Source of the DNA: an uncultured Acidimicrobiaceae bacterium
GTDB taxonomy: Bacteria > Actinomycetota > Acidimicrobiia > Spongiisociales > UBA5794
NCBI GenBank assembly: GCA_964505525.1
Contig: CAZDIQ010000001.1
Span: forward strand, 5,544 to 69,543
Length of the DNA stretch: 64,000 nucleotides
Reading direction: 5' to 3'
A program made the position numbers and the translations under genes. Below the pieces are notes generated by a model. The model saw nothing but the letters and a program-made list of their open reading frames with translations. It ran no database searches and was not told where the DNA came from. This document shows, piece after piece, positions 3,014-37,114 of this stretch; the stretch's first letter is position 1; each line of letters starts with the position of its first letter.

Positions 3014-3256
3014 TCAGACGGCATCCGGGAGAGCGTCGTACACGGCCCGCGCTTCCTCCTCGGTCATCAACCCGAGATGCTGCGCCGACGTGATCGTCGC
3101 GTTCGACACGTTGTTCACCACGTCAGCGCCGCCGTCCGTCTCCGGATACTGCGGGGTGTCCCGATACACGAACTGGGCTGCCGCCGCAGCACCAAACTCC
3201 TCCAACGTGAACTCGCCGTCATGCAACCGTTCGAGCAGAGCGAGGAGCTTGTTCAC
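3014..3256 (-). CDS. hypothetical small acidic protein (80 aa); possible immunity/chaperone for adjacent toxin proteins
   Basis: ORF with non-Arg-rich composition, sandwiched between the MazF-like and polyvalent genes and 3 nt upstream of the polyvalent gene. No recognisable motif. Confidence 0.35.
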   Translation of the reverse strand: MNKLLALLERLHDGEFTLEEFGAAAAAQFVYRDTPQYPETDGGADVVNNVSNATITSAQHLGLMTEEEARAVYDALPDAV

Positions 3257-3990
3257 GAATCCAGTGTACGAGAACGACCGACACGGAACCGGCGCATCCT
3301 CAGCTGCACCTTCGGTGCCCCCTGCCGTTCGGTCAGATTGTCGATGATGTCCTGGAACACCGGCTTCTTCACGTAGGCACCCTCACGCCGATAGTTGACG
3401 TCGTCGATCTGCACGAACCGGTCCAGCTTCAAGAACGACTCCCGCTCCGACTTGTCCCAGTCACCCGAACCGATCGACGGTCGGTCACCGTCACGCCCAG
3501 CCTTCGACGTCAACTGCACACCGACCAGGTTCTTGCCGTCCTTCGTCCGTCCGATGATCAGCACCGGACGGTCCTTCGACTGGCGCGGGTCCTCCTCGAA
3601 CGGCACCCTGGCCCACACGATCTCGCCGGGGTCGGCGTGACCGTCCGGGTGGCGCGGCCGGTACGCGATCCGAACGTCCTCGAACGGGACATCCGGAAGA
3701 ACACCAGCCGGACGCGTCGGACCGCCAGGCGGCGGCGGGATACGACGACCAGGCGGCGGCGGGATCGGACGACCGGAACCGCCCGGCCCACGAGTCCAGC
3801 GGCCATCCGAGTCGCGTGGCACATCAGCCGACCCGGCAGCGACCAAAGCCTCCTCGACCGGCGGATAGACGTACGGGTCGAAGTCCGGGTCGTCGTCAAC
3901 GATGTCCGCCCACCACTCGATCACCGTCGACGCGGCACCGTCGCTGACGATCTCCAACTCGGTGTCAGCCATCCGCGCTTGCGTACTCAT
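3253..3990 (-). CDS. MazF/PemK (Kid)-like mRNA-interferase toxin domain protein with N-terminal 'VPRD..GRW' motif and Pro-rich linker
   Basis: C-terminal 'GEIVWARVPFEEDPRQSKDRPVLIIGRTKDGKNLVGVQLTSKAG' aligns to the Kid/PemK core 'GEIWLVSLDPTAGHEQQGTRPVLIVTP...VVPVTSGG'. N-terminal ~110 aa contain 'ADVPRDSDGRWTRG' and 'RPIPPPPGRRIPPPPGG'. ATGA overlap with upstream MuF gene. Confidence 0.55.
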   Translation of the reverse strand: MSTQARMADTELEIVSDGAASTVIEWWADIVDDDPDFDPYVYPPVEEALVAAGSADVPRDSDGRWTRGPGGSGRPIPPPPGRRIPPPPGGPTRPAGVLPDVPFEDVRIAYRPRHPDGHADPGEIVWARVPFEEDPRQSKDRPVLIIGRTKDGKNLVGVQLTSKAGRDGDRPSIGSGDWDKSERESFLKLDRFVQIDDVNYRREGAYVKKPVFQDIIDNLTERQGAPKVQLRMRRFRVGRSRTLDS

Positions 3991-16783: not shown

Positions 16784-17839
16784 TCAGTTCGGGCACCGGA
16801 CAGGCATCTGCAACAGAGTCCAGCCGGGGGCAGAGGGGTGGATCAGGACGGGCTTCAACTCGTCGAACACGGTGACCGTCACCGTGTCAGCGTCAGCCTC
16901 GGCCAGTACCTGACGGAGCAGTTTCGGGTTCAACGACACGGTCGGAACCTCCCGGTCAGTCTCAACGGGGATACCGGACTTCGATCCGGCGACGTCGCGC
17001 ATCGTGACCACCAGTTCGTCGTCAACGACAACGAACCTGGCCGACGCCCCTCCGGCCAGTTCCAGCTTGCCGAGACGGGCAGCGAGTTGACGACGGTCGA
17101 CCGTGAACGACGAACCGTACCCGGTCGGGATCAAGGCCTGCCAACTCGGGAACTCGCCGATCGTCTGACGGACCACAACAGACGTCGTGGCGTTGAAGAA
17201 GTGCACGGTGTCATTCGTTGCGAAGTCGACGTTCAGGTCGTCCCCGTCGAACATGGCGGCCACGATCTGGACACCGTCGCTGGGCAGCAGGACCGGCCTG
17301 CCGAAGTCGACGACATCGTCAACAACCATCAGACGGTACGAGTCCGTCGCGACCGCACGACCGGCGTCGAACAGCACCGACGTCAAGACAGCACGAGTCG
17401 GGTCAATCGACGCGGCCGTCGCGGCGAGACGGGCAGCCCGAGCGAACCCGGTCGAATCGACCTCAATGGGATCGTTCCGGTCCGGGATGACATACACCGG
17501 GTTCTCCATGAACGACAGCGAGTATTCCAAGTCGCCTGCGACCATGACGACCTCGTCGGACGTCACGTCGAGCGAGACACGTCCGGCGTGAGCCATCGCC
17601 CTCGCGAACCGCTTCAACAGCCCGGCGTCGACTGTGATCGTCGTCGCCTTCTTCCCGGCGACCGGGATCTTCGCCGACGCGGTCGTCATGTAGTCGGTCG
17701 CCGTGACCGTAACCCGTTGGTCACGGAACGCGAGAGTGATCGAACCGGCAGACGCCCTGCCGACAAGTGTCACCGCCTTAGCGAACGCGGTTGCGTCGGT
17801 AGTGAACGTGGCCGTCTTCACGGCGAGAGAAGTAGACAT
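16784..17839 (-). CDS. dnaN: DNA polymerase III beta sliding clamp (DnaN) homolog
   Basis: 'DSYRLMVV', 'FPSWQALIP', 'LNPKLLRQVL', 'KPVLIHP' correspond to conserved DnaN blocks. Start set at ATG (MSTSLAV) with AAAGGA SD. Confidence 0.65.
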   Translation of the reverse strand: MSTSLAVKTATFTTDATAFAKAVTLVGRASAGSITLAFRDQRVTVTATDYMTTASAKIPVAGKKATTITVDAGLLKRFARAMAHAGRVSLDVTSDEVVMVAGDLEYSLSFMENPVYVIPDRNDPIEVDSTGFARAARLAATAASIDPTRAVLTSVLFDAGRAVATDSYRLMVVDDVVDFGRPVLLPSDGVQIVAAMFDGDDLNVDFATNDTVHFFNATTSVVVRQTIGEFPSWQALIPTGYGSSFTVDRRQLAARLGKLELAGGASARFVVVDDELVVTMRDVAGSKSGIPVETDREVPTVSLNPKLLRQVLAEADADTVTVTVFDELKPVLIHPSAPGWTLLQMPVRCPN

Positions 17840-17853
17840 GGGTTGGGGTCCTT

Positions 17854-18657
17854 TCATTGCATGGATTGAGCTTCGGTGAGAAGCGGACCGTCGTAACCGA
17901 GTTCGGTCAACGTGTCCGACATTCTTCGAGTGAGATCGAGCAGCGCCGCAACGGATCGCTTCTGTCCGGTCATGGCTTTCGCCTTGTCGATCCACGGTTC
18001 AGGTTGCAACGCGAACCCGAACTGCATCTCGGCAGACTTGGCCTGTTCGGCGGCGATCTCGTCGACCAGTTTCCGGAAACGGACGGCCCCCATCCGAGGG
18101 TTCGCCAGCCACGCTTTCAAGCCGACCGACTGGTGGGCCGAGTCGAGTCGACGTAGCTCCAACGCTGCGGCAGGAGTGACCGCCTCAGCGTCGATCGCGG
18201 CTTGAACGTCGGAACCGAGTTCGAGCAGGTCGAGTCGCCACCGGACACGGAACTCGGCGACCCCCGCGATCGCAGCGATCTGTTCGACGGTCTGCCCGGC
18301 GTCGCGTCGTTTGCCGTAGGCGCGGGCTTCCTCCATGATCGACAAGTTCACGCGGCCGGTGTTCTCGGCGAGCATCAAATCGGCCTCGGCCTGTTCGTCG
18401 ACGTCGCGGATCGTCGCTTCGATCGTTACCCGGCCGAGCAGCTGATAGGCGCGCCAGCGGCGTTCCCCGGCGATCAGCCGGAAGCGGCCGTCGTCGAGTG
18501 GGCGCACCGCGATCGGTTCGGCGAGTCCGACCGCGGCGATCGACGCGGCCAACTGTTCGAGTTCGGCCAGGTCGAACACCTTCCGGTCGTTCGTGCCGGT
18601 GACGATCTGGTCGACCGGGATCGTGTCGACGTTCACTGGACGGTCACCATTCGGCAC
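17854..18657 (-). CDS. parB: ParB-like partition/nuclease-domain protein
   Basis: 'FRLIAGERRWRA' matches the ParB-N GERRxRA box, plus 'NLSIMEEARAY' in an HTH region. Confidence 0.6.
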   Translation of the reverse strand: MPNGDRPVNVDTIPVDQIVTGTNDRKVFDLAELEQLAASIAAVGLAEPIAVRPLDDGRFRLIAGERRWRAYQLLGRVTIEATIRDVDEQAEADLMLAENTGRVNLSIMEEARAYGKRRDAGQTVEQIAAIAGVAEFRVRWRLDLLELGSDVQAAIDAEAVTPAAALELRRLDSAHQSVGLKAWLANPRMGAVRFRKLVDEIAAEQAKSAEMQFGFALQPEPWIDKAKAMTGQKRSVAALLDLTRRMSDTLTELGYDGPLLTEAQSMQ

Positions 18658-19865: not shown

Positions 19866-20135
19866 TCAGACGGACTTCCGTCGACGTGCAGCCACCGTAG
19901 CCGCGGCCCCGACACCGAGCACCAACGCCCCGGCCAGAGAGACGATCCGGGTCGCGTCAGAACCCGACGTCGCCAACTCGGCGGGAACGGTCGTCGGGGG
20001 AACAGTCGTGGTCGACACGGACGTCGCCGGGCATTCCGGGGACGGAACGTACGACTCGCAGTCGGCAGCAGAAACCGTCGGGGCCGCGACGAACGTGGCC
20101 ACCGCGGTGAGCAGGATCAGGATGCGGTCCATCAC
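19866..20135 (-). CDS. small secreted protein with sortase-type (LAxTG-like) C-terminal sorting signal
   Basis: N-terminal signal peptide 'ILILLTAVATFVAAPTVSA'; Thr/Pro-rich middle; C-terminal 'LATSG' + hydrophobic stretch + 'RRRKSV'. Confidence 0.45.
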   Translation of the reverse strand: MMDRILILLTAVATFVAAPTVSAADCESYVPSPECPATSVSTTTVPPTTVPAELATSGSDATRIVSLAGALVLGVGAAATVAARRRKSV

Positions 20136-20968
20136 AGCAATGTTGCCTGACCCACCGACACGGCCGTCCCGGCGATCGAATGACGGCCAGTCCAGCGGCC
20201 GACGACATCTTCTGTCCGGTCATCCGGATGCACCAACGGGTACTCCTCGATCAGCTGACCGTCCAACGTCATGCCCATCTCGGTGCGTGGGGCGGCGGAC
20301 TGTTTGAAGTAGAACGCGATCTCGGCAGCCGCGCATCGGTCGCGGACGTCGCGTGCCCAGTCATGATCCATCGGCCGGTAGCCGGGGCCGGACTCGCCGC
20401 CGACGATCACCCACTGGATGTTCGTCAGGTCAAGCGACGGGACCGGGCCGAGCATCGGCTCCACACTGAGGAAGTGAACGACCGCGGGGATCGACGTCAG
20501 GCTCTTGGTCCGGAACGTGTACCGGTCGTTCTCGATCGACGTCCCAACCCAGATGTTCGCCGGGACTTGTTTGAGGCCGTTGCGTGCCAGCCAGCCTTCC
20601 GAGTCTTCGGTGCCGTTGAAGTACGCGGCCATCAGCTGCGGCCGTTTCGTCAACACAAGATAGTCATGCTGGACGCGGAGCATCTGAGCGAAGATCGTGT
20701 CGCGCTGCTCGTCGTTGAAGTCGACGTGGAACAGATCCGACATCGAGTTGACGAACACACGAGACGGGCCAGACTTGCGAAGGAACTTCGACGGCTCACC
20801 GATCTTGTTCTCTTTGTAGGTCGGCGTGAACCCGTTGGGGAACGACCCCTTCCCGAACTTCGTGGTGATCGTCTCGGCGTAACAGTTGTCGCAGCCAGGC
20901 GAGATCTTGTCACATCCCGTCGTCGGATTCCAGGTGTGCTCCGCCCAGCGGATGCGAGTGTCTTTCAT
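20132..20968 (-). CDS. phage Gp37/Gp68 family three-Cys-motif protein (DUF5131)
   Basis: 'TWNPTTGCDKISPGCDNCYAE' and 'VFVNSMSDLFH' are the family signatures. Confidence 0.7.
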   Translation of the reverse strand: MKDTRIRWAEHTWNPTTGCDKISPGCDNCYAETITTKFGKGSFPNGFTPTYKENKIGEPSKFLRKSGPSRVFVNSMSDLFHVDFNDEQRDTIFAQMLRVQHDYLVLTKRPQLMAAYFNGTEDSEGWLARNGLKQVPANIWVGTSIENDRYTFRTKSLTSIPAVVHFLSVEPMLGPVPSLDLTNIQWVIVGGESGPGYRPMDHDWARDVRDRCAAAEIAFYFKQSAAPRTEMGMTLDGQLIEEYPLVHPDDRTEDVVGRWTGRHSIAGTAVSVGQATLL

Positions 20969-21583: not shown

Positions 21584-22161
21584 CAGTTCACCGTCGAGCG
21601 GACCGTCACGCCGTCGATGCCGTCCAACTGGTCGAGGATCTCCGACACCCGATCCCACTCGTCGAGGTCGACCGACACGAGCACATGGGCACGCTTCAAC
21701 GGTTTCAAGTCGACCGACTTCGGCTTCTCGGCTGGCTCGTCGTCGGCTTCGGGCAGCAGGTCAGCGATCACCGCCGACAACGAGTCCGACAAGGTGCCCT
21801 GATCGACAAGTTCGTTCAACAGGTCCGAGTTGATCTCGGCCATGCTTCCGATCGGGTCCATCAACGCCAGCATCTCATTCTCCTCAGCCTCCGACAGTTC
21901 CACCCAAGCAACCGGGATCGGACCGTCCTGTGCGAGCCCGACACGCATGTGGCCGTCCACGACCAAGCCTGTCGTCCGGTTCACGATGACCGGCGCGACC
22001 CAGCCGACATCATCCAGCACCGACGTCATCGCAGCCTTCTGCTGATCGCCGTGCACCCGCGGGTTCCGCGGGTTGGCTTCCAACTCCGACGCGGTGATCT
22101 CGCCGTACTCGACGATCCGATTCCGCCACTTGGCGTCAACCTTCGGTTTGCGTACTGCCAT
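21583..22161 (-). CDS. ParB/Srx-like nuclease-domain protein
   Basis: 'VVDGHMRVGLA' resembles the ParB-N DGHHR core; acidic C-terminus. Confidence 0.45.
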   Translation of the reverse strand: MAVRKPKVDAKWRNRIVEYGEITASELEANPRNPRVHGDQQKAAMTSVLDDVGWVAPVIVNRTTGLVVDGHMRVGLAQDGPIPVAWVELSEAEENEMLALMDPIGSMAEINSDLLNELVDQGTLSDSLSAVIADLLPEADDEPAEKPKSVDLKPLKRAHVLVSVDLDEWDRVSEILDQLDGIDGVTVRSTVN

Positions 22162-22945
22162 CGCCCCATCTCACTTCTCTCATGGCGGCCTCATCACCGG
22201 CCGCCGCCTTGTATCGCTCCGCCAACTCGTACTGCTCCTGATGCCGGTCATGCCCGTACGTCTGCGTCAACGGCTGAGGATGCCACAGATGCCAGCAGGC
22301 GCCTTCAAGCCGGGTGTGCGGCCCCCACAGGGTGTCGACGGACAGACCGAACGACGTGTCGTCAGAACCCCACTTCGCGAACCGTTCGTCGTAGCCGGTC
22401 ACCGTCGCGAACGCGCCGCGCGGTACGACGACCATCCCGGACCAGGCGACGTTCTCGCCCACCCATTCGCAGTCCTCATCCGGCCACCGGATCGGCCTCG
22501 ACGGATGATCGCGCAGGACCCGTTCCGAAGCTCGACGGTTCAGCTTGACGTAGAAGCGGGGCATCACCCACGACGCCGCCCCGGACAGGACGAGGTCGGC
22601 GGCATGAACAATCCAATCCGGGTCGAACACGGTGTCCGCGTCGGCGATGACGAACACGTCACGCGCCGCCCTCGACGCCGCAAGGTTGATCGCCTTCGGA
22701 TGATTGAAGTCACCAGGATCTTGCCGACGCCCACCGCCGTCATCGGCGACGATCACTTCGACCGACGGCAACAGCGCCGCCCATCGCCGCGCCAGCCAAC
22801 GCCACGACGTAGTGCGATGCCCGCGATCCGGACGGTACGGGACCAGCACCGAGACATGAGGCTGGCTCACGCTACGCCCTTCGCCTGATTCCACCATTCC
22901 GGATGAGGACGGTCCGGGGAGTTCCGCCAGAACGTCGCCGCGCAC
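22136..22945 (-). CDS. family-2 glycosyltransferase
   Basis: 'VIVADDGGG', 'IADADTV', 'GYDERFAKWGSDDTSF' are GT-A signatures. Confidence 0.6.
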   Translation of the reverse strand: MRGDVLAELPGPSSSGMVESGEGRSVSQPHVSVLVPYRPDRGHRTTSWRWLARRWAALLPSVEVIVADDGGGRRQDPGDFNHPKAINLAASRAARDVFVIADADTVFDPDWIVHAADLVLSGAASWVMPRFYVKLNRRASERVLRDHPSRPIRWPDEDCEWVGENVAWSGMVVVPRGAFATVTGYDERFAKWGSDDTSFGLSVDTLWGPHTRLEGACWHLWHPQPLTQTYGHDRHQEQYELAERYKAAAGDEAAMREVRWGDGSTQTEG

Positions 22946-24516: not shown

Positions 24517-24604
24517 GTCTCCTTCGTCGGATTCCGGTCGGACGACAGGACCGTAGCACGAGTTGCGACATGTAGCATCCGGTGCTGCTACCGTCGCGTC
24601 GGTC
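24517..24604. promoter_or_regulatory. divergent promoter region between clamp-like operon and terS/terL with two GTAGCA palindromic sites
   Basis: GTAGCA-cgagt-TGCGAC (24553..24569) and GTAGCA-N8-TGCTAC (24572..24591). Confidence 0.5.
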
Positions 24605-25216
24605 ATGGCGAACAGGAAACGGAAGACGAAGGCGGAGCTTCAAGCCGAGGCCAAAGCCGCCGAGCAGGAACGGGTCGTGGTCTGGGCCGAACAGTTCGGG
24701 GCACCGATCGCGATTCTGCAAGGCTGGAACATCGACGACGGGACATGGCATCCTCAGTCACCGGTCGGGCTCATGTTGCAGGCCATCGCCTCACGAGGGG
24801 CGCATATCACGACCGCCGCACAACTCGGAGGGCTGCGGAACATCATGCAGCTGATCGCCCGTGGTCACGAGTACATGGTCGACGCCGCCGAAGACCGGGC
24901 CTACATCCCGATCGACGTGCGTGTGTTCGTCGACCTGGTCGTTCAGATTGAGCAGGCCGAAGCGTTGATCGAAGTCGAACTCGTGAAGACGGTCCGGGAC
25001 GGGGCGAAGACCGACCCGAAGATCGCGTTGGCGATGCTGTCGCGACGGTTCGGTCAACGCTGGCGTGAACAGCAGGCCATCTTCACCGCCGACGAACACG
25101 ACGAACGTGACGCCGCCGTGTCGAAGGTGCTCGCGAACCCGGACGCGGCGTTGGCGCTCGCCGAGATCGCCCACGAAGTCGAAGACACGGTGCAGGAGCA
25201 CGAACGCGGTAGCTGA
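24605..25216 (+). CDS. terS: terminase small subunit (putative)
   Basis: Basic N-terminus 'MANRKRKTKAEL', about 200 aa, stop overlaps terL start (TGATG). Confidence 0.5.
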   Translation: MANRKRKTKAELQAEAKAAEQERVVVWAEQFGAPIAILQGWNIDDGTWHPQSPVGLMLQAIASRGAHITTAAQLGGLRNIMQLIARGHEYMVDAAEDRAYIPIDVRVFVDLVVQIEQAEALIEVELVKTVRDGAKTDPKIALAMLSRRFGQRWREQQAIFTADEHDERDAAVSKVLANPDAALALAEIAHEVEDTVQEHERGS

Positions 25217-26742
25217 TGCGTACCCACGACCTGGCCTCACGGGCGTGGAAGGCAATGCCCGACACGATGGGCCGCCGACTGTCCGACGGCACCTACACGG
25301 CACCGGAGCACGTCAAGCTCATCTCATGGCTGCTGACGTTGAACGCGAACCGGTACGTCCCGCGGCTCGGGATCTCGATGCCTCCGGGTTCAGGGAAGTC
25401 GGAGGTCATCGACTACTACGACTCGATCCACCTGTTGGAACACGACCCGCGACGAAGGATCATTCTCGCCTCCTACTCCGGTGAACTGGCCGAGGAACAA
25501 GGCAAACGGGTCCGCAACACGATCGAGTCGAACTATGACCTGCTCAACCTCCGGCTCATGCAAGACAGCCGGGCCGCTGACCGGTGGCGTACCACGATGG
25601 GCGGCGGGATGTGGACCGTCGGCATCGGCGGTTCGATCACCGGTCGCCGCGCGTCGAACTTGAAGATCGACGACCCGCACAAGAACTTCGCCGAAGCCAT
25701 GTCGATCAAGAACCAGGTCGACACCTGGAACTGGTACGGGTCCGTGGCCCGCACCCGCATGCTGCCCCGCTCGTCGCTGGCAGTCGTCCAAACCCGGTGG
25801 GCTGAGGGTGACCTGATCGGCCGGTTGAAGTCGAACGACGAAGGCAAAGACGACTGGCTGTTCGTGTCGCTCCCGGCGATCGCCGAGAAAGACGAGACGA
25901 TCGTCACCGTCCTCGGCGACTGGTATTACAAGCTCACCGCGATGGGCGTCACCCGGTTCCCGGTATGGGAACGGGAGAAAGGTCAAGCCCTGTGGCCCGA
26001 GTTGGAACCGGGGGTGCCGTGGTTCGACGAAACGGAGTACGCCGAGATCCGCGCCGACGTCGGCGAAGTCGTCTGGGCTGGGCTGTACCAGCAACGCCCG
26101 TCGCCCGCCGAGGGCAACCTGTTCAAACGATACGACTGGCGGCGTCTCGACGGGCCGATGCCAGCAGGCACCTACACGTACGTTCGGCGTTGGGACTTGG
26201 CGTCAGTCGAAGGGGGCGGTGACTGGACGGCCGGGATGCTCATGGCGATCAATCACGAGACACGGCACATCTACATCATCGACGCCCGCCGTGCCCGGCT
26301 CGGCCCGACCGAAGTCGAAGCGTTCGTGCACATGACCGCTGTGGAGGACCGCGACAACTACGGCACCGTTCTCACCCGCGTTGAACGCGAACCGGGATCG
26401 TCCGGCAAGAACGTCGAGACGAACTACATGGCGAACGTCCTCGCCGGGTTCCCCGCCAAGTTCCTGCCGTCAACCGGAGCGAAGGAGGTTCGAGCCCTGC
26501 CGTTGTCCGGTCAGGTAGGTGCCCGCAACGTGTACCTGTGCCGACGGGTCCGAGCGAACGGGGAGACGACGATCCCGGACTGGTGGGAGTGGCTGATCGA
26601 GGAAGCGGCCGTGTTCCCGAACGGCACACACGACGACCTCATCGACGTCGCCTCACTCGCCTACGTCGATCTGATCGAGGAACAACCGCGCCGGTCACGG
26701 ACGAAGGTCGGGTCGTCGGCCCGCAAGCAACTCGGGTTCTGA
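25216..26742 (+). CDS. terL: terminase large subunit
   Basis: Walker A 'GISMPPGSGKS', Walker B 'LKIDDPH', 'LYQQRP', C-terminal nuclease 'THDDLIDVASLA'. Confidence 0.9.
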   Translation: MRTHDLASRAWKAMPDTMGRRLSDGTYTAPEHVKLISWLLTLNANRYVPRLGISMPPGSGKSEVIDYYDSIHLLEHDPRRRIILASYSGELAEEQGKRVRNTIESNYDLLNLRLMQDSRAADRWRTTMGGGMWTVGIGGSITGRRASNLKIDDPHKNFAEAMSIKNQVDTWNWYGSVARTRMLPRSSLAVVQTRWAEGDLIGRLKSNDEGKDDWLFVSLPAIAEKDETIVTVLGDWYYKLTAMGVTRFPVWEREKGQALWPELEPGVPWFDETEYAEIRADVGEVVWAGLYQQRPSPAEGNLFKRYDWRRLDGPMPAGTYTYVRRWDLASVEGGGDWTAGMLMAINHETRHIYIIDARRARLGPTEVEAFVHMTAVEDRDNYGTVLTRVEREPGSSGKNVETNYMANVLAGFPAKFLPSTGAKEVRALPLSGQVGARNVYLCRRVRANGETTIPDWWEWLIEEAAVFPNGTHDDLIDVASLAYVDLIEEQPRRSRTKVGSSARKQLGF

Positions 26743-28833: not shown

Positions 28834-30183
28834 TCAGAACACTTCGTCCTGATTGTGCGGCCGGTAGTCGCTCGCCGGGACGCCGCCGTATCGGGCACCG
28901 AACAGCGTCGAGCCGTAACGGAGCGGGTCGTTGCGGTCCTCGACCGACCAAGGCAGCCGTTTGTCGGCACCGCGGATCACAGTCGACGGCAGCCAGATGT
29001 CCGAGTCGCGGGGGACACGGAACTGTTTGACGGTCATCTCGACCCCGGTGCCGCCAGGGACGATCCTGGTCGACGTGTCGTCGTCGGGCGGATGAATCGA
29101 GAAACCGACGTCAGGCCAGTCAACCCATCGTTCGGAGCCTCCCGGCGCGCCGTGGTCACCGCGGGAGAAGTGGGCTTCCAACGCGATCGCGAAGCCGTAC
29201 CGGGCCGACAAGGTATTCAGCGTGGCATGCAACGCGAGGGCGGCTGTCTCATAGTTCTCGCCGGGTTTCATCATCGACATGTACTTGATCGGCCCCATGA
29301 CAAGCACCTGCGGCTGGGACCGTTGGATCGCGGCTTCGAGCGCGGCGAGTCCTTCCGGGGATCGGATGTCGATCCCGCCAGGCCGGTGCAGCAACGCGGG
29401 CCGTCGAAGGTCGAACACGGAGTGCGAGTCGACTGAGCGTTGCAGCCCGAACAGGATGGTCCGAGTCGACGACGTGATATCCCAAGCCCCCGCTTCTAGC
29501 TCGACGATCAAGGCGCGGCGTTCCTGTTCGGTTCGTTGCCCCGTCCACGGGTGCACGCCATTCTCGGCGCAGTACCCGATCTGGCGGAGCAGCGTCGACT
29601 TGCCGATCCCTGCCTTCGCGACGACGAGCAGGCGTTGCCCGCGGCGCAGGAGGCCACGCGCGATCCACGGTTGGACTTCGTCTCGGTCTTCGCCGGAGTC
29701 CAAGGTCGCCATGTCGTCGTAGTAGCCGTGGATGATCGAGTCGGCGTGACGGCGTAACAGTTCTGACTCGGCCAACTGATCCGACACGGTGCGGGCCACG
29801 TCGACGGCTTGTTCTTGTGCGTATCCGGCGTCGGTGAGACGTGCCCCGATGACGATGAGCGCCCGCGACTTCGAATGGTCGAGCACGACCTGCGCGTATC
29901 GGCCGACGTTCGACACCGCTGGCGTTTCGTTCATCAGTTCCGTCAGCCAAACGATCGCGTCGTGCTGGTCCGGGATGCCAGCCGCGACGACAACCTGGTC
30001 CACTCGTTCGCCTGCGGCGGTGAGCGTGGCGATCGCATGGAACGCTGCCTGGTGTTGCGGGGCGTAGAAGTCGGCTGACGTCAACGCTGCTGTCGCTGTC
30101 TCGCAGGCTTCTCGTGCTATCAGGCACGACCCGATGACGGCACGTTCGGCGTTGAGGTCGTGCGGTGGGATGCGGTCAGCCAT
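28834..30183 (-). CDS. dnaB: DnaB-like replicative helicase
   Basis: N-terminal 'IPPHDLNAERAVIGSCLI' (DnaB N domain), Walker A 'VVAKAGIGKST', RecA-fold C-terminal. Confidence 0.65.
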   Translation of the reverse strand: MADRIPPHDLNAERAVIGSCLIAREACETATAALTSADFYAPQHQAAFHAIATLTAAGERVDQVVVAAGIPDQHDAIVWLTELMNETPAVSNVGRYAQVVLDHSKSRALIVIGARLTDAGYAQEQAVDVARTVSDQLAESELLRRHADSIIHGYYDDMATLDSGEDRDEVQPWIARGLLRRGQRLLVVAKAGIGKSTLLRQIGYCAENGVHPWTGQRTEQERRALIVELEAGAWDITSSTRTILFGLQRSVDSHSVFDLRRPALLHRPGGIDIRSPEGLAALEAAIQRSQPQVLVMGPIKYMSMMKPGENYETAALALHATLNTLSARYGFAIALEAHFSRGDHGAPGGSERWVDWPDVGFSIHPPDDDTSTRIVPGGTGVEMTVKQFRVPRDSDIWLPSTVIRGADKRLPWSVEDRNDPLRYGSTLFGARYGGVPASDYRPHNQDEVF

Positions 30184-30709
30184 CCGCGGGAACGAGTTCG
30201 ATCGTCAGCGGGCCGTGCACGATCCGATGCTCGATGCCGACCATCACCGAGATGAACTTCGCGAGGTCGATCGCTTCGAGCCGTCCGTCGAGTTCCAGGT
30301 CGTTCCTGATCCCTGCGATGTCGTCGGCCAGCTGGGAGGCAGCGAGCGCCGGGTCGGACTGGACGATGCGCTTGTATCGCTCCTCCTGCTCGATCAGCAG
30401 GTTGTCCCGGTGGTCGGATTCCATCACCCGGATCAGCAGATCGACTCGCCTCGCTCGGCGTGCCCCCATGTCGGCGGCATGCTCGATGATCGCTGACGGC
30501 AAGATGTCCTGCGGGGACGTGGTCAGCATCATCGCCTTGATCGCGGTCATCACGTCATCGACGATGATCCGGCCGTGCTTCGTCCCGGCGATCAGATGCT
30601 GCCACACCTTGCGTTGCAAGTCCTTGCGGGCCGGGTCCAACCAGCTGGGCCGGTTGAGCATCACAGCGTACGCCTGGACGGACTGGTCGATCACGAGTGT
30701 GTCATTCAT
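30176..30709 (-). CDS. hypothetical protein (177 aa)
   Basis: ORF between initiator and helicase; could be a helicase loader. Confidence 0.35.
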   Translation of the reverse strand: MNDTLVIDQSVQAYAVMLNRPSWLDPARKDLQRKVWQHLIAGTKHGRIIVDDVMTAIKAMMLTTSPQDILPSAIIEHAADMGARRARRVDLLIRVMESDHRDNLLIEQEERYKRIVQSDPALAASQLADDIAGIRNDLELDGRLEAIDLAKFISVMVGIEHRIVHGPLTIELVPADG

Positions 30710-31787
30710 CGTTGGCCTCCGGAAGCTGATGGAAGCTAGAGCTTCGCGCTCGTTCCGACATCACTTGCCGCAATGCCCGAACCTTCGCCACCTGCTCTAC
30801 GGACACGTCAGCGATGATCGCCACGGTCGCATCGTCGCCTCCGCGGGCGATCTGGTTGTCGGCGGTGATGAACCACTTCTCGCCGCGGGCCTGGGCTTTG
30901 TCTCGCACGATCTGCCAGGCCCCGTCGAAGTCGCCGCGGGCGATCGCGGCGTCCATCTCGTCGACCTGGGCCATCTCGATCGCCTTGTCGATCCCGGCCG
31001 CCGTGATCGCCGCGACCTCAACCGAACCAATCTCGTCGGTCCAGCGACGATCGTTCAGCCACGTCGAAGCATGCGGCCGTTTCGAGTGCGGGGTCTTCGC
31101 CTGCTCCCACCAGCGGCCCCGCGCGATGGCCGCGTCGATGATCACCTGCGGGTCCACCTTGTCCTTCATCGCCTTCGCCCACGCGCGCTGAGCCGGAGCC
31201 TTACCATCCTTCGTCCGCGGATAGATCGACCAGAACTCATCAAACCGATCAGCAACTTCAACACGCTCCACCGCAGGTGGAGCAAGCCCCAAGTCCAACG
31301 AAGGAGCCGCGGTGTTGTTCTCCTGATCTTCTTCTGTTGTTCTAGTAGAAGCGGTCACCACATGACCAGGCCCTGGTCGTGCCATGACCGGGGCCTGGTC
31401 ACCACATGACCGGGCTTCGTCGACCCTGGTCACCACATGACCAGGGTCGCCTTCCCATACAGCGTGGTCGAACCAGATGACCCATCGCTTGCCGCCCTCG
31501 CCCTGCGGTATCTGAATCGTCTCTAACTCGATGATGCCCGCAGTGACCAGCGTGGCGACAGCCGCGCTCACCTTGCCCGACGAGATCTTCAATCTGGCGG
31601 CGATGGAGTTCCTGGTGACGTTCTCCTCGTACCCGTCAGCGTGCGACGCGAGCCACACAGCGATACGGAACGCGTACGGATCGAGCGACATGTCCTCGGT
31701 CCGCCAATTGGGGGTGCTCGTCCAGCCTCGACGGCCCTTCGATCGGATAGCACCTGGCGTAGAGGCGGGGCGGATGTTAGAGTTCAT
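30702..31787 (-). CDS. putative replication initiator (winged-HTH) containing iterons
   Basis: N-terminal 'NSIAARLKISSGKVSAAVATLVTAGIIE' wHTH; gene sits upstream of dnaB-like; the coding sequence contains 4-5 GGTCACCACATGACC repeats. Confidence 0.5.
   Translation of the reverse strand: MNSNIRPASTPGAIRSKGRRGWTSTPNWRTEDMSLDPYAFRIAVWLASHADGYEENVTRNSIAARLKISSGKVSAAVATLVTAGIIELETIQIPQGEGGKRWVIWFDHAVWEGDPGHVVTRVDEARSCGDQAPVMARPGPGHVVTASTRTTEEDQENNTAAPSLDLGLAPPAVERVEVADRFDEFWSIYPRTKDGKAPAQRAWAKAMKDKVDPQVIIDAAIARGRWWEQAKTPHSKRPHASTWLNDRRWTDEIGSVEVAAITAAGIDKAIEMAQVDEMDAAIARGDFDGAWQIVRDKAQARGEKWFITADNQIARGGDDATVAIIADVSVEQVAKVRALRQVMSERARSSSFHQLPEANDE
31354..31483. repeat. iteron array: GGTCA-N5-TGACC palindromes at 31354, 31376, 31398, 31429 (+ variant 31467)
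   Basis: Three exact copies of GGTCACCACATGACC, one GGTCGTGCCATGACC, one GGTCGAACCAGATGACC; first three spaced 22 bp. Confidence 0.7.
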
Positions 31788-32004: not shown

Positions 32005-32199
32005 ATGCAGCCACTCGTCGTCGTACCCCACCACGTCGGCATCGGCGAAACCAGCCTCGACGGCAAGAAACTCGGTGTGCTCTGCATCAAAGGCGCCGAC
32101 ATCACCGGCCGCATCTCCATCGACGTCGTCCTCGACATGCCCACACTCGGCCAAGTCGTCGCCGCTCTCGACGAACTACGAATGAGCATGATCGAGTGA
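32005..32199 (+). CDS. hypothetical small protein (64 aa)
   Basis: ORF, first of three plus-strand genes. Confidence 0.35.
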   Translation: MQPLVVVPHHVGIGETSLDGKKLGVLCIKGADITGRISIDVVLDMPTLGQVVAALDELRMSMIE

Positions 32200-32417
32200 T
32201 GTGGTGCATCCACACCAACGACGACGGCCGGTTCCGGTTCGCTACCAGCGGCCCCCTCACCGTCACGTCCGTCGACGCATGGCTCCACGCCGATACCGCC
32301 GCCGCGCAACAATGGCAGGTACCGGACGACAACGACCGCACCGTGCAGTTGAAGTTCATGCACGCAACCGGGCTCACGGCAAACGTCGGAGCAGTCATCA
32401 CACATGAGGGAGCCTGA
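32196..32417 (+). CDS. hypothetical small protein (73 aa)
   Basis: ORF, ATGA-coupled. Confidence 0.35.
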   Translation: MMWCIHTNDDGRFRFATSGPLTVTSVDAWLHADTAAAQQWQVPDDNDRTVQLKFMHATGLTANVGAVITHEGA

Positions 32418-32778
32418 CATGGCAGCATTCCGAACCGGCACCGGCAAGACCGAAGACGCACCGAAGGTGCTCGGCCAACCAGACGGCCGCCCACCGATCT
32501 TCGTCGAAGCGACCGGCAGCTACGAAAGCCTCCGCGTCCGCGACCGGCGCTGGGTCACCGGCAGCGCCGTCCCACGAGGACTCGCGGTCGGTGTGCTCGT
32601 CGAGATCCAAGTCCAAACAGCGAAAGCCAAGCCCGTCGACGTCGACGTCGTGATCACACCAGCCAAGCAGGCCCCCGCCAAGGCCGCAGCGAAGGCACCC
32701 GTCAAGAAGGCTGCGCCGGTCAAGAAGGCGGCAGCGAAGAAGACTCCGGCGAAGAAGGCGGCTCCTCGATCGAAGTGA
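32404..32778 (+). CDS. DNA-binding protein with Ala/Lys/Pro-rich histone H1 / HupB-like C-terminal tail
   Basis: C-terminal 'PAKQAPAKAAAKAPVKKAAPVKKAAAKKTPAKKAAP' repeats. Confidence 0.5.
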   Translation: MREPDMAAFRTGTGKTEDAPKVLGQPDGRPPIFVEATGSYESLRVRDRRWVTGSAVPRGLAVGVLVEIQVQTAKAKPVDVDVVITPAKQAPAKAAAKAPVKKAAPVKKAAAKKTPAKKAAPRSK

Positions 32779-33937
32779 GATAGGACGCCGCGCTGGCCTC
32801 CATCTCGCCGACAGCATTCATCAGTTCGACCCGCGACGGCTGTTCCACCCGCCATACCACCGCGGACGGGACACGCTTCTCAGTCGGCGCGGACGGCATC
32901 ACGTCGTCGAAGATCGGTTCCTCACGCAACGTGACCTCGTACAGCATCGGCCGTTCGTGCCGTGCCGCGTACATGAGAGCGTTCTTCCGGTCCGTCGTGA
33001 TGTACACCATCGTCTTGTCCGACGCGTCGAGGCCAGGCCACACACCAGTCTCTGACGGTGGCAGCAGAATGTCACCGCGCTTCAAGCCGTGGCGACCGCC
33101 ATGCCACCAACGGACCCGCTGCCACCACTCCATCGCGTTCGTGCCGTCGCGGCGTTCCATGAACACGCCCATCGCTTCACGGATCGCCGCCAACGGATCA
33201 GTCCCCGTTGGCACCCGGAGATGCACGCCAGAATGCGCCCATTCGGCCTGTGGGGCCGGTGAGGCGTCGACCGCGTCATCCGGGTCGTGTGAGAGCGGAG
33301 TGAACTCCACGACCTCCACCGGTCGTCCACCGGATACGCCGTTCTGAGCAGCCCAGGCGGTCGCCCACGCCTCACCCGCGGCTTGGCGCATCGCTTCGGC
33401 CTGCCACGGCGACACGATCAGCCGCAACGGTTCGAACGGGTCCGTCGGCTTCGAGAACATCGCGAGCGTCTTCGCGACCTCCTCGACGATGTCGATGTTC
33501 GTCGTGTCGTCGTACACGAACTGGTGCACCCACCAGCCTTCATCCCAGTCATCGTCGACCGGCTGCGAGTAGCGGCGCAGGATCGCCTTGCCCGGCCGTC
33601 GCGGTGGAGGCCCGTACTGGTCAGCGAGACTGCCGACAACAATGTCGCGTTCCGTCTCCGACAGTGCGAGCAGCGCGTCGACCAGCTGCTTCATCAAAGG
33701 TTCGTTCAACGGCGTCCAGTCGTCGCTGCCCGCCTCGGCCCAACTGTTCCACGAGGCCCGTTCCTTCCAACACCATTCGATGTGATGGTCCTCGGTGTTG
33801 TCGTCGTCCACGACGCTGTGCAACGCGCCACCGACCCCGTTGCCGGGCTGGTCATACCACTCGCGGACCAGCATGGCGCAGTCCCACATCGCGTCGGTGA
33901 CGTCGATGTCCATGAACTCCATGTCATCCTCGCTCAT
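32720..33937 (-). CDS. Arr-family (rifampin ADP-ribosyltransferase-like) domain fusion protein
   Basis: C-terminal 'WWHGGRHGLKRGDILLPP...VYITTDRKNALMYAARH...PMLYEVTLREEPIFDDV' aligns with Arr blocks 'FYHGTKANLAIGDLL...IYFSALMEPAVWGA...GYIYIVEPTGPFEDDP'. N-terminal about 270 aa unknown. Confidence 0.55.
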   Translation of the reverse strand: MSEDDMEFMDIDVTDAMWDCAMLVREWYDQPGNGVGGALHSVVDDDNTEDHHIEWCWKERASWNSWAEAGSDDWTPLNEPLMKQLVDALLALSETERDIVVGSLADQYGPPPRRPGKAILRRYSQPVDDDWDEGWWVHQFVYDDTTNIDIVEEVAKTLAMFSKPTDPFEPLRLIVSPWQAEAMRQAAGEAWATAWAAQNGVSGGRPVEVVEFTPLSHDPDDAVDASPAPQAEWAHSGVHLRVPTGTDPLAAIREAMGVFMERRDGTNAMEWWQRVRWWHGGRHGLKRGDILLPPSETGVWPGLDASDKTMVYITTDRKNALMYAARHERPMLYEVTLREEPIFDDVMPSAPTEKRVPSAVVWRVEQPSRVELMNAVGEMEASAASYLTSIEEPPSSPESSSLPPS

Positions 33938-34626
33938 GACAGCACAATGTGAATGTTGCGGCCGCAGCCGTCCGTGCCCGAAGGCGCCCACGTGACACCA
34001 GGCAGATACTCGCCGCCCGGCGCGACCTCACCAGTCTCCGTGTCGACCACAGGCGGCCGCCAGAACTGGCCGGACTCGAACTGGCCGAACGGCTTCCGCC
34101 ACGCAGCACCGGCCGGGATGACCACATGCTCACCGCTGGTCGACACGATCACCTGTTCCAACTCGCCGTCGGCGATCATCCGATCAAGTTTGGCCCGCAG
34201 CTTCTTCACGTCGACCTTCGGTTTCCACGACACGAGATCCGGGTCCAGATCCTCCCAGTAGTTCCCGGCCCGTTCGTCGTCGACGGTCAACACCGGTTTC
34301 GTCTGGTTCGACGAGATCGTCCCGTTCGGGGTACCAATCTTCGTCTTGTCGAAGTCGAGGAACGACCGGACCGCGTACTGTTCGACCGTCGACCGCAACC
34401 AATCCAACCGGCGCCGGGTCGGCCCCACGACTCGTTCCTTCTGCTCCGACAAGCGGGCCAGTTCGTTCTGATGCAGGATCTCGTACTCGGCGATCCGGTT
34501 CGTCAACCGGCGCATCGCCGCCAACATGCGCGACACCGTTTCCAGGTTCGCTTCGGATGCGTCAGGGATGGATGGTTCGGCGTCCGGGTCGTCCCAGTCG
34601 ACGTCGTCGAACAGTTCGTACGTCAT
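33934..34626 (-). CDS. hypothetical protein (230 aa)
   Basis: ORF, ATGA-coupled to Arr-like gene. Confidence 0.4.
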   Translation of the reverse strand: MTYELFDDVDWDDPDAEPSIPDASEANLETVSRMLAAMRRLTNRIAEYEILHQNELARLSEQKERVVGPTRRRLDWLRSTVEQYAVRSFLDFDKTKIGTPNGTISSNQTKPVLTVDDERAGNYWEDLDPDLVSWKPKVDVKKLRAKLDRMIADGELEQVIVSTSGEHVVIPAGAAWRKPFGQFESGQFWRPPVVDTETGEVAPGGEYLPGVTWAPSGTDGCGRNIHIVLS

Positions 34627-34924: not shown

Positions 34925-35323
34925 TCACTCGACCGGCCACGCGTGCGACCCCGGATGATCCTTGATCGACGCCGCCGCCTCAGAGATCGTGTCGAACGTG
35001 CCCCACACCGTCCCCGACGTGTCGTCACGGACCTGATAACGGGCAGGGACTTCCACCTGCACACTCGACCACATCACCAGACGACCCCCAGCGACAGCGC
35101 GAGCCTCCGCCACCGTGTCGAACATGACGTCGAGCCCGGCCACCGAGTACGCCGACCGGTTGACCGTCACCGTAGTCGGCAGTTTCCGTTTCCGCTTGGC
35201 ACAGTCCGCGCACTCCACGACGTTGACCGTACCCGACAACCCGTCAGTCCTGTCGTTCGTAACGAACGACCAGACCTCCAGACATGCCCTGCACCAGAGT
35301 TGGAGAGGAGTTGGCGCCATGCG
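34925..35323 (-). CDS. hypothetical Cys-motif protein (start uncertain)
   Basis: 'VECADCAKRKRK' region real-looking; upstream part overlaps tail gene so start may be a GTG/TTG near 35225-35237. Confidence 0.25.
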   Translation of the reverse strand, partial: RMAPTPLQLWCRACLEVWSFVTNDRTDGLSGTVNVVECADCAKRKRKLPTTVTVNRSAYSVAGLDVMFDTVAEARAVAGGRLVMWSSVQVEVPARYQVRDDTSGTVWGTFDTISEAAASIKDHPGSHAWPVE

Positions 35324-36623
35324 CCCCATACCCCAGACCACGCGGCTCCGAGAACGCGCCGATCGTTGCCCCCGATCCGCGCCCAGCACCACCACCGCAG
35401 TGATACACAACGGCCCCGGACCAGTGCCATGCCGATGGATACCCGTCCCCCCCTGCGCCTGGAGTCGTCCCGGTATTATCGCCACCGTCGCTCAATGCCC
35501 CGCCGCCGCCACCACCGGCCTGGCTGGCGGTGCCAGTGCCACCCAAATGGTAGTAGGGGCCGCTGGAAGCATTGGGGGCAACATTGCCGCCGTTGACACT
35601 TGCCGAGAACGACGTGAAGTTCGGGGTGAACCCATCGGCGGTGTACCCCTCGAACGAGTTCCGCTTGTTCACGATGGAGGCCACACCGACTCCCTTCACG
35701 AGAGACGTGGTGCTGGTGGGTGCTGGGTGTCCGAACACGGGAATGATCTCTCCGGCCCCGCCGCCGCCACCACGGTTCACGTTGGTGCCGCCCCGCGACT
35801 GCTCACCGCCGCCGATCAGGAGAAAGTCAATCGTGGCTGGAAGGGCGGCCCCCGAGATCGGGTTCATGTGCGCGGTGAAGTTCGCCTTGTCGGCGTTGGT
35901 GTTGCCGGTGTTGATCCAGTGGTAGCAATAGTCGGAGTCGTACCATGTGCGAATCCCGGCAGATTGACTCGTGAACACGTACGAGAACGGGTTGTAAGCG
36001 GGCGCAGCGAAGTACGCATCCCAGTAGGCGAACGTGGCCGGATCGGGCTCCCCTCGGGCGAAGACGAACCCGACAAGACCCGCCTCTGGTGGGCTGTCCG
36101 GGGCAGCGAAGGTGCTTGTGAGCCCGAACTGCACATTCACTCCGTTCGCGTTCGGTACCAACGCGCACGAATTGACCCCTCCCGTCCTGGTGGGACTGAC
36201 AGGAGTGTCGTCGACCCATATGGTCGATCCGCCATCGACTGGGTCGTAGGTTGCGACCCACGAGTCCCAGTTCGTGCCCGAGATGACGTTACTGATGACC
36301 GAGCCGCCCGCCTGGAAGTTGATCCCGACGTTCGACGCTGCGAGGAACCCGATCCGCGACGATGTGCCGGTGTTGACGTCAGGCCACCCCAGCGCCGCTC
36401 GCTGTAGCGTGGCCCCGTTGGCCTTCCTGAACGCCATCACAGTGAACGGGCCGTCGCATGGTGGACCTCCGAAGTGGTTGGTCCAGTTCCCGACGATGTT
36501 CCCCAAGGCGACCACCGAGTTCAGGGTGTCGTTGTTGCCTGAGATGATCAGATCGAAGTCCGACCCAGCGATTCCTTGATTCTCAATGACCTGATCGTCG
36601 GTCATCCCGTTCCAACTGCGCAT
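35244..36623 (-). CDS. Gly-rich minor tail protein
   Basis: Poly-Gly tracts 'GGGGGAGE', 'GGGGGGALSDGGDNTGTTPGAGGDGY' typical of actinophage minor tail proteins; N-terminal 124 aa of track ORF are Arg-rich and excluded. Confidence 0.5.
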   Translation of the reverse strand: MRSWNGMTDDQVIENQGIAGSDFDLIISGNNDTLNSVVALGNIVGNWTNHFGGPPCDGPFTVMAFRKANGATLQRAALGWPDVNTGTSSRIGFLAASNVGINFQAGGSVISNVISGTNWDSWVATYDPVDGGSTIWVDDTPVSPTRTGGVNSCALVPNANGVNVQFGLTSTFAAPDSPPEAGLVGFVFARGEPDPATFAYWDAYFAAPAYNPFSYVFTSQSAGIRTWYDSDYCYHWINTGNTNADKANFTAHMNPISGAALPATIDFLLIGGGEQSRGGTNVNRGGGGGAGEIIPVFGHPAPTSTTSLVKGVGVASIVNKRNSFEGYTADGFTPNFTSFSASVNGGNVAPNASSGPYYHLGGTGTASQAGGGGGGALSDGGDNTGTTPGAGGDGYPSAWHWSGAVVYHCGGGAGRGSGATIGAFSEPRGLGYGAHGANSSPTLVQGMSGGLVVRYERQD

Positions 36624-36703
36624 GTCCCAGACGATCAGAGCGTCGCGGAGCGGTTCGATCGGATGCACAACCAGAGGGTCGCCAGCGTTGAAGCGTTGCC
36701 GTC

Positions 36704-37114
36704 TCACGCCAAGCCGATCCACATTCCGCGTGACGCGCCGCCCCCGAAACTGGCGACATCCAGCGACACCAACGCGCCCGGCGGGACGGAGACAGACAGC
36801 GCGCCGCCCCCGTTGCCGCTGATCGACAGCGTCTGCGCGGTCACACCGTTGACTCGAACGTTCACCGACAATGCCGACGTGTTGACGATCAGCGATGCAT
36901 ACCAGATCGACAGGCTCGTCCCAGCGAACGACAGGATGCCCGGCGACTCGTCGGTGTAGTTGATCAGCCCCGGCCACGAAAACTGGAACGGCCACTCCGA
37001 CCCGCCGCCACCGCCGCCACCGGCCTGTTGACGAATACGACGATCGGCCCTGTTCGGTGCCGGATCGAACAGAGGCTCCGACGCCGGAGAGAACCGCGAC
37101 GACCGGCCGCTCAC
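36704..37114 (-). CDS. Gly-rich minor tail protein (136 aa)
   Basis: 'QQAGGGGGGGSEW', ATGA-coupled to upstream tail gene. Confidence 0.4.
   Translation of the reverse strand: MSGRSSRFSPASEPLFDPAPNRADRRIRQQAGGGGGGGSEWPFQFSWPGLINYTDESPGILSFAGTSLSIWYASLIVNTSALSVNVRVNGVTAQTLSISGNGGGALSVSVPPGALVSLDVASFGGGASRGMWIGLA

Follow-up and report, generated by a model that had tools for sequence, protein, structure and literature searches.

We analysed a 64,000-nucleotide stretch of contig CAZDIQ010000001.1, hereafter the window, and found in it a phage gene (32720..33937, minus strand) that codes for a protein of 405 amino acids (aa) plus stop. The C-terminal part of this protein, about 115 aa long (residues 271-385; 32783..33127, minus strand), resembles the rifampin ADP-ribosyltransferase Arr in sequence profile and in predicted fold, keeps the catalytic His and Tyr of Arr in register, and has lost the elements with which Arr binds rifampin. 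Our reading is that the protein is an active ADP-ribosyltransferase (ART) of the Arr superfamily that uses an acceptor other than a rifamycin, and from the profiles and the structural model we give this a probability of roughly 65%.

Homology of the C-terminal domain to Arr

The 405-aa protein had 11 homologues in a collection of 5.8 billion proteins, and a profile search of 1.84 billion representatives returned 19 clusters at 50% identity for the group, which we call the window clade. The protein itself matched a single family, PHROG phrog_17296 (E 3e-9, residues 275-336), to which no function is assigned. When the clade profile was run against a library of 1.84 billion proteins, it matched approximately 200 proteins, mostly of 110-150 aa, at profile positions 47-155 (E 1e-12 to 1e-5). 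An hhalign comparison with 117 small phage proteins gave a probability of 99.9%, with E 3e-35 for a profile of 11 clade members and E 3e-33, over 111 columns, for a profile of 19.

The small proteins provided the connection to Arr. PF12120, the Arr-ms family, was matched by 47 of 60 of them, and a profile of these 60 to which the window protein's C-terminal domain had been added as a row reached the Arr-ms structure 2HW2 with E 7.5e-9 and Arr-2 with E 3e-4. Aligned as profiles, the 117 small proteins and 122 true Arr sequences gave an hhalign probability of 98.4% and E 7.7e-15. The clade was also compared directly with the profile of true Arr sequences, resulting in an alignment of 100 columns with E 1.1e-4 and a score of 35.5, in which the catalytic His and Tyr were in register. 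Judged by these profiles the resemblance to Arr exceeds chance; 31 shuffled or reversed control profiles scored at most 24.7, as compared with 35.5 for the clade. Aligning the clade with a single Arr-2 sequence gave E 0.099, which is not significant.

The predicted structure agreed with the profiles. An AlphaFold2 (AF2) model of residues 228-385 had a predicted local distance difference test score (pLDDT) of 80, and Foldseek searches of the PDB with this model returned 2HW2 (E 4e-6) and 9IAF (E 1e-5) as the best matches, both with a probability of 1.0. The next matches were weak (E of at least 0.07) and were cholera toxin, LT, Tpt1 and pertussis S1, so that the top matches consisted of ARTs only, in agreement with an ART fold and its split beta-sheet core for NAD+ binding. 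The same two structures were at the top when the full-length model was used. The Foldseek alignment spanned 124-138 columns of 2HW2, and the C-terminal beta-beta-helix topology was kept.

A previous reading of this DNA from its letters alone (the sequence-only reading) had aligned the C-terminus of the protein with Arr block by block. The first two blocks were found as described, the first as H279-G followed by G288-D-I-L-L-P293 and the second as Y312, seven residues and A320-L-M-Y-A. The third, given as YxVxPxxPxxDD, held in part, since Y333-E-V and P341-I-F-D344-D345 are present, while the block as a whole needs a one-residue insertion or deletion and has Leu in place of its first Pro. The relationship to Arr that had been read from these blocks was borne out by the intermediate small proteins, the direct hhalign comparison and the AF2 and Foldseek results, which show that the C-terminal domain shares its ancestry and its predicted fold with Arr. 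This relationship is secure only by way of the intermediate sequences and the predicted fold, and on the profile evidence the domain is placed in the Arr superfamily and not in the rifampin-ART family proper.

Catalytic residues and rifampin determinants

The features of Arr were checked on an alignment of Arr-ms, Arr-2, the 19 clade members and the 117 small relatives, with the Arr sequences verified against the PDB. Those that define true Arr enzymes, HGT, SN[YF], DPN[VL], [LV]TK[KR]P and M[RK][DE]XL, were taken from the literature (PMC6092378). His279 (codon 33101..33103, minus strand), in the motif WWHGG, is equivalent to His19 of Arr-ms and was present in 100% of the 19 clade members and 98% of the 117 small relatives, while Tyr312 (codon 33002..33004, minus strand), in the motif VYxT, is equivalent to Tyr49 and was conserved in 100% of the clade. 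Both aligned with their Arr counterparts in every alignment and agree with the H-Y-[EDQ] (diphtheria-toxin-like) division of ARTs, which has the His at the end of strand 1, the Tyr in strand 3 and its acidic residue after strand 5. An acidic loop, E340-P-I-F-D344 (32906..32920, minus strand), followed by D345, contains the candidates for the equivalent of the catalytic Asp84, which would correspond to D344 or E340 depending on the alignment. Conservation in the clade was 95-100% for E340 and D344 and 89% for D345; E334, which lies in a strand, was conserved at 89% and was invariant in a 12-sequence alignment.

The GDxLxP turn of Arr was retained in the clade, while other motifs had changed. 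HGT has become HGG in the window protein (this G is present in 79% of the clade), T297-G298-V stands in place of the S-N-F of the SN[YF] motif in the NAD loop, and DPN[VL] is replaced by EEPIFDDV. The clade also has invariant residues of its own, Arg276, Arg287, Arg317, Arg363 and four Trp.

We argue for a working NAD+ site because the His, Tyr and acidic set and the PPSxTG motif of the NAD loop are invariant across the 19 divergent clusters. Together with the fact that NAD+ depletion would be of no obvious use to a replicating phage, this invariance argues against a domain that is no transferase at all and acts as an NAD+ glycohydrolase or as a catalytically silent NAD/ADP-ribose-binding module. 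Such a role is in keeping with the lack of a predictable acceptor and with the uncertain register of the acidic loop, and ART folds have reportedly been turned into NADases repeatedly, going by the titles of papers on Tne5; we nevertheless consider it improbable.

The elements that hold rifampin in Arr were missing. Arr-ms residues 89-91, 95-96 and 98, in the rifampin-binding loop between strands 5 and 6 ([LV]TK[KR]P), were gapped in 19 of 19 clade members and in most of the small relatives, and residues 112-115 were deleted in the clade. Residues 127-134, in the alpha2 helix that carries M[RK][DE]XL and the pocket positions M126, L130 and L133, were also gapped, the remaining helix being weakly conserved and without the motif, and the hydrophobic residues of the rifampin pocket were not kept. 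Both phage groups, the fusion clade and its small relatives, appear from the alignment to be without what lets Arr bind rifampin. As the sequence-only reading had proposed, rifampin is an unlikely substrate: the protein has neither the rifampin-binding loop nor the motif of the alpha2 helix nor SN[YF].

These deletions bear on whether the protein could be a true rifamycin ART, that is, a phage-carried resistance gene that shields the host RNA polymerase and hence phage transcription. The nearest solved structures are those of Arr-ms with rifampin bound, the catalytic His and Tyr and an acidic loop residue are conserved, and soil actinobacteria, which come into contact with rifamycin producers, are the probable hosts, to judge from a GC content of 64% and the distant similarity of the helicase to those of Gordonia and Mycobacterium phages. 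Against this, the protein does not match PF12120; [LV]TK[KR]P, M[RK][DE]XL, SN[YF] and DPN[VL] are absent, the hydrophobic pocket residues are not conserved, and a fusion of 405 aa stands against a stand-alone enzyme of about 140 aa. We regard this explanation as very improbable.

N-terminal modules

The sequence-only reading had described the N-terminal 270 aa as one domain fused to the ART. The fusion stands, whereas the single domain does not: the N-terminal 272 residues are composite, with an acidic domain, linkers, an alpha/beta unit and a 40-aa module predicted from the sequences and the model. The acidic helical domain (residues 12-106; 33620..33904, minus strand) has the signature GGxLHxVxDDxNxEDxH, an isoelectric point (pI) of about 4 and a net charge of -21. 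It is widespread in phages as a free-standing protein of about 90-124 aa, being found in Gordonia phage MelBins (gp66) and at 14 further IMG/VR loci. Loci recorded for the domain are L006-L020 and L005 3956-4282, and the phages with the stand-alone form differ widely in GC content. Only this domain was recovered, in MelBins, when the 405-aa protein was compared with phage records by tblastn, and a BFVD fold search with it returned proteins of MelBins and APunk. No relative was found in Pfam, PHROG or the PDB, and the fold searches pointed to no function. One loop has invariant His, Asp and Asn residues that could form a binding site or an active site. A word-indexed homologue search with the N-terminal 227 aa missed a near-identical metagenomic protein (P0001), and its empty result is not evidence of absence.

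The acidic domain is followed by a linker that is predicted to be disordered (residues 107-159; 33461..33619, minus strand; pLDDT 29-46) and is not conserved among the homologues, and then by a small alpha/beta unit (residues 160-212; 33302..33460, minus strand) that the protein has in common only with P0001 and P0002. Directly ahead of the ART lies a conserved 40-aa module (residues 233-270; 33128..33241, minus strand) with the pattern [FW]x[HN]xxVxxRxPxGTDPxxAxRxxMxVFMERxDGTNA. Its mean column identity was 72% over 25 clusters and it was present in every member of the ART clade, and yet AlphaFold models it at low confidence despite this near-invariance. The N-termini ahead of it are swapped among clade members: some have the acidic domain, others CPMCLGHG-type zinc ribbons or different Cys-rich segments, and some have none, while the module and the ART remain constant.

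The module is also found in ART-less proteins that end soon after it. One of these (P0036) occupies the syntenic place in a related phage, L022, with Gam upstream and a small cassette and DnaB downstream. The two examined genes for ART-less module proteins are directly followed by a methyltransferase-like gene with the motif ISTxEHVG, both in L022 (2293-3078, then 3075-3698) and on the short contig L023 (530-1228, then 1326-1862), and in L004 a gene of the same methyltransferase-like family (9099-9476) adjoins the ART gene. On this comparison the constant unit is the module plus the ART, with a module that can stand without the ART. No relatives of the module were found in IMG/VR, and JGI metagenomes had just three. 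Two explanations of the module were tried and set aside. EF-hand-like profile matches to myosin light chains in the PDB reached only E 0.2-0.5 and were dismissed as chance, and a polymorphic-toxin arrangement, in which the module would precede diverse toxin domains, was unsupported, the ART-less module proteins having only short C-terminal tails.

Proposed function

We propose that the 405-aa protein is a phage accessory enzyme composed of several modules, in which the C-terminal 115 or so residues would be a mono-ADP-ribosyltransferase with the Arr fold and a catalytic set of the H-Y-[D/E] type. It would bind NAD+, release nicotinamide and move ADP-ribose to a non-rifamycin acceptor, probably to a hydroxyl group by analogy with the chemistry of Arr. 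As acceptor we would guess at a macromolecule of the host, with a protein the likeliest kind, and we give this somewhat less than an even chance. We favour a host macromolecule because the fused domains are interchangeable, the module is invariant although ill-structured, and AcrIF11 and the T4 enzymes offer a precedent. Recognition of the acceptor would fall to the fused parts: the very acidic helical domain at the N-terminus and the 40-aa module, which looks like a partner-binding segment in being invariant and ill-structured. The ART could then act catalytically as a host-takeover or counter-defence effector, as do T4 Alt/Mod or AcrIF11.

A bolder version, which we put forward as speculation, is that the Arr fold has been re-tooled in phages as a macromolecule-directed effector, with the module and the swappable N-termini bringing the enzyme to a conserved protein or defence complex of the host, which the ART would then ADP-ribosylate. 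If true, this would make the ART the first of the Arr clade to act on a macromolecule, and the 40-aa module would be a new host-binding element of actinophages.

Several results weigh against an active Arr-superfamily ART of this kind. Searches of Pfam, NCBIfam and PDB sequences with the 405-aa protein returned nothing, the PF12120 hidden Markov model (HMM) matched neither the protein nor any of 11 C-terminal domains of the clade at E up to 10, and an HMM of the clade did not recover Arr from PDB sequences. The probability of the direct hhalign alignment between clade and Arr was only 56% at its E of 1.1e-4, and the Arr-family match on which the sequence-only reading depended was thus narrow with hhalign and absent with PF12120. 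The counterpart of Asp84 varied between alignments, being D344 in the global alignment, E340 in two others and a position between them in a third. In the full-length AF2 model the predicted template modelling score (pTM) was 0.35, and the arrangement of the domains is not confident. With a median pI of 6.2 the ART core is not basic and shows no electrostatic sign of nucleic-acid binding; nor did a positive sign of a protein target emerge. A targeting role of the fusion partners is something that we infer, because these partners match nothing of known function. Lastly, no macrodomain, ARH or NADAR was found among approximately 30 scanned of the approximately 56 likely genes of the window, and no immunity gene was seen.

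Some of the same observations would suit the detoxification of a small molecule, in which the enzyme ADP-ribosylates a diffusible compound other than rifampin that blocks the phage, such as an antibiotic or an anti-phage metabolite of the host or its competitors. The only characterized members of the Arr fold modify a small molecule, and Iyer et al. 2022 proposed small-molecule modification for phage Arr-family ARTs (PMC9503650). The near-neutral core is consistent with this, as is the beta-beta-helix topology that forms the substrate cleft of Arr, which is kept over the 124-138 aligned columns of 2HW2. However, neither the hydrophobic pocket residues of Arr nor its substrate loop are conserved, there is no known candidate compound, and resistance enzymes are usually stand-alone, whereas this one is fused to variable N-termini and to a module that exists without the ART. 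We consider detoxification possible but unlikely, and continue to favour a macromolecular acceptor.

The gene and its phage context

The open reading frame (ORF) of the fusion protein is judged to be a real gene because its GC content by codon position (0.66, 0.48 and 0.80 at positions 1, 2 and 3, with 64% GC for the sequence overall) follows a coding pattern, because it has homologues, and because independent gene calling on a related contig yields the same gene. Its ATG at 33937 shares four base pairs (ATGA) with the TGA stop of the Mu Gam-like gene upstream. A second in-frame ATG, 15 nucleotides downstream at 33922, is preceded by GAGGA and is the start called for P0001; the N-terminus of the protein is uncertain by 5 aa. 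The protein ends in a Ser/Pro-rich tail (residues 386-405 plus stop; 32720..32782, minus strand) that is not conserved among the homologues and whose coding region overlaps a convergent gene (32404-32778) by 59 bp.

We assign the window to a phage, in agreement with the sequence-only reading, because the ART gene has tail genes, a terminase, Mu Gam, DnaB and a replication initiator around it; the sequence suggests a phage of a high-GC actinobacterium. The upstream neighbour is the Mu Gam-like DNA-end protection gene (33934..34626, minus strand), and the replication initiator and the DnaB-like helicase are annotated at 30702-31787 and 28834-30183, respectively. A large terminase, a beta-clamp-like gene and a ParB-like gene lie further away. 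Among cultured phages no close relative was found: megablast with the locus as query returned zero matches from 50,697 phage records, and the helicase shares less than 30% identity with the helicases of Gordonia, Mycobacterium, Arthrobacter and Rathayibacter phages. Five related metagenomic contigs have a common order, in which tail and lysis genes are followed by Gam, by zero to four small genes and by the ART gene, with the replication initiator, the DnaB helicase or both further along. The place of the ART gene, with the tail/Gam block on one side and the replication block on the other, is conserved.

A functional pairing of Gam with the ART was considered and rejected, the zero to four genes between them in the relatives fitting shared synteny. 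The same position would suit nucleic acid as the acceptor, with the enzyme ADP-ribosylating host or phage DNA or RNA, as DarT, Tpt1 and RhsP2 do, so as to manipulate replication, repair or translation. The gene lies between one for a DNA-end-binding protein and the replication module, ARTs with H-Y-[EDQ] include modifiers of nucleic acids, Tpt1 is among the weaker fold matches, and the clade-invariant Arg276, Arg287, Arg317, Arg363 and four Trp are near the active site. Yet DarT and RhsP2 use electropositive grooves (PMC12340436), while the ART core has a pI of about 6.2 and the whole protein a pI of 4.5 and a net charge of -37. The proximity to Gam reflects shared synteny and not a tight gene pair, and Tpt1 is a weak match in fold (E 0.1). 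A nucleic-acid acceptor seems to us slightly less likely than a small molecule, and a host protein stays the preferred target.

Downstream of the ART gene is a convergent cassette of three genes on the plus strand (32005-32199, 32196-32417 and 32404-32778), homologous to a cassette on related contigs, and the three ORFs are real genes. It directly follows the ART gene in L003 and L021, lies about 4 kb downstream in L002, and was not seen in the other two of the five contigs; it is also present in L022, the related phage with the ART-less module protein. The three proteins had no match in Pfam or PHROGs, and the last (124 aa) has a Lys/Ala-rich tail that resembles histone-like proteins: AKKAAPVKKAAAKKTPAKKAAP.

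Elsewhere in the window, the large terminase (Terminase_6N plus 6C) is encoded at 25216-26742 on the plus strand, with an ORF upstream at 24563-25216 (plus strand). This pair lies amid a minus-strand region, a long way from the tail genes (35-64 kb), which is an unusual genome layout. The minus-strand genes 16784-17995, 17854-18657, 20132-20968 and 22136-22945 encode a DNA polymerase III beta-clamp-like protein (three domains, all weak), a ParB-like protein, a DUF5131 protein (E 2e-76) and a family-2 glycosyltransferase. A glycine-rich tail-fibre-like ORF (35244-36995, minus strand; 583 aa when read from the first start codon) runs into the ORF 34925-35485 (minus strand), and in the near-identical contig L021 this gene and the next are called as 487 aa and 104 aa; the true starts of the pair probably lie further downstream.

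Toxin-type domains are also found elsewhere in the phage. A protein of 1412 aa (3990-8228, minus strand) ends in a PF03496 ADPrib_exo_Tox domain, a C3/VIP2-like ART (E 6.7e-7), which upholds the earlier claim of a second, different ART in the same phage, one unrelated to the Arr-like domain; it also has an HNH match of E 9e-4, under the cutoff of Pfam. It is adjoined by a 245-aa protein with a PemK/MazF-like domain (3253-3990, minus strand; E 4e-7), and near it is a 985-aa protein with a Zeta-toxin domain (43-3000, minus strand; E 7e-12). The related 80-kb contig L001 carries an 859-aa Zeta_toxin protein. Going by these matches, the load of toxin-like domains in the phage is unusual.

Distribution and significance

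A scan with two conserved peptide patterns of the clade found it in none of 185,579 GTDB species-representative genomes, and pattern scans found none in IMG/VR and no more than three loci in JGI metagenomes, indicating that the clade is rare in these sequence collections. Our literature search found no study of the fusion-clade family. Arr-family ARTs in phages are not new in themselves (PMC9503650). What appears to be new, on the sequence comparisons made here, is a sister clade that is invisible to Pfam, its fusion to a domain that stands alone in other phages and to a conserved 40-aa module, and the explicit observation that the determinants for rifampin are absent.

ARTs are recurrent weapons of the conflict between phages and hosts, and for none of the Arr-like ARTs of phages is a substrate known. 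Every recognizable rifampin-binding element has been lost in this clade, and still the Arr fold persists; the fused modules are experimental handles for finding the target. For resistome surveys the result is a caution, in that phage "Arr" matches should not be scored as rifampin-resistance genes. The practical gain is modest until the target is found.

Comparison with known systems

Alt, ModA and ModB of phage T4 are NAD+-dependent ARTs that act catalytically on host components. AcrIF11 is a small, divergent phage ART, diphtheria-toxin-like, that uses Asp, acts on a defence protein and is too divergent to be annotated by sequence (PMC12421852); like the window protein it is phage-encoded and has a small, divergent ART. 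T4 Alt/Mod and AcrIF11 have known targets and belong to other ART families, none of which was among the top 50 fold matches of the window domain, and the likeness is functional and by analogy.

Arr itself (Arr-ms, 2HW2 and 9IAF; Arr-2, 9IBA; PF12120) was the best structural match, with the same predicted fold as the window domain. The two share the equivalents of His19 and Tyr49, a candidate equivalent of Asp84 and the GDxLxP turn, and are similar in the size of the core and in the beta-beta-helix C-terminus. In contrast to Arr, the window protein has no PF12120 match, HGG for HGT and TG[V] for SN[YF], and its rifampin elements are deleted, while its clade has added the conserved Glu334, Arg276, Arg287, Arg317, Arg363 and four Trp. 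Arr is a stand-alone enzyme of about 140 aa, whereas the window protein is phage-borne and has about 270 additional N-terminal residues.

The nearest relatives are the small stand-alone phage ARTs, among them gp52-54 of Microbacterium phages, orf74 of Sinorhizobium phage PBC5 and gp70 of Streptomyces phage TurkishDelight. Arr-family ARTs of Microbacterium and Gordonia phages and of Sinorhizobium phage PBC5 were described by Iyer, Burroughs and Aravind in 2022 as a viral "rifampin ART family" (PMC9503650). The small family is labelled "ADP-ribosyltransferase" in 24 Microbacterium phage records, and phrog_17296 may be the same family. Both groups have YxHGG/HGG, LPPSxTG, VYxT and (V/L)YEV and the same deletions of rifampin elements. 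The small ARTs have 110-150 aa and no added domains and most of them match PF12120, whereas members of the window clade carry the 40-aa module and variable N-termini in addition, have WWHGG, and have a shortened loop, EEPxxDD, where the small ARTs have PxGxLExDPD; there is no pairwise BLAST similarity between the two. On these features we place the window clade as a sister clade of the small phage Arr-like ARTs and not as a member of that family.

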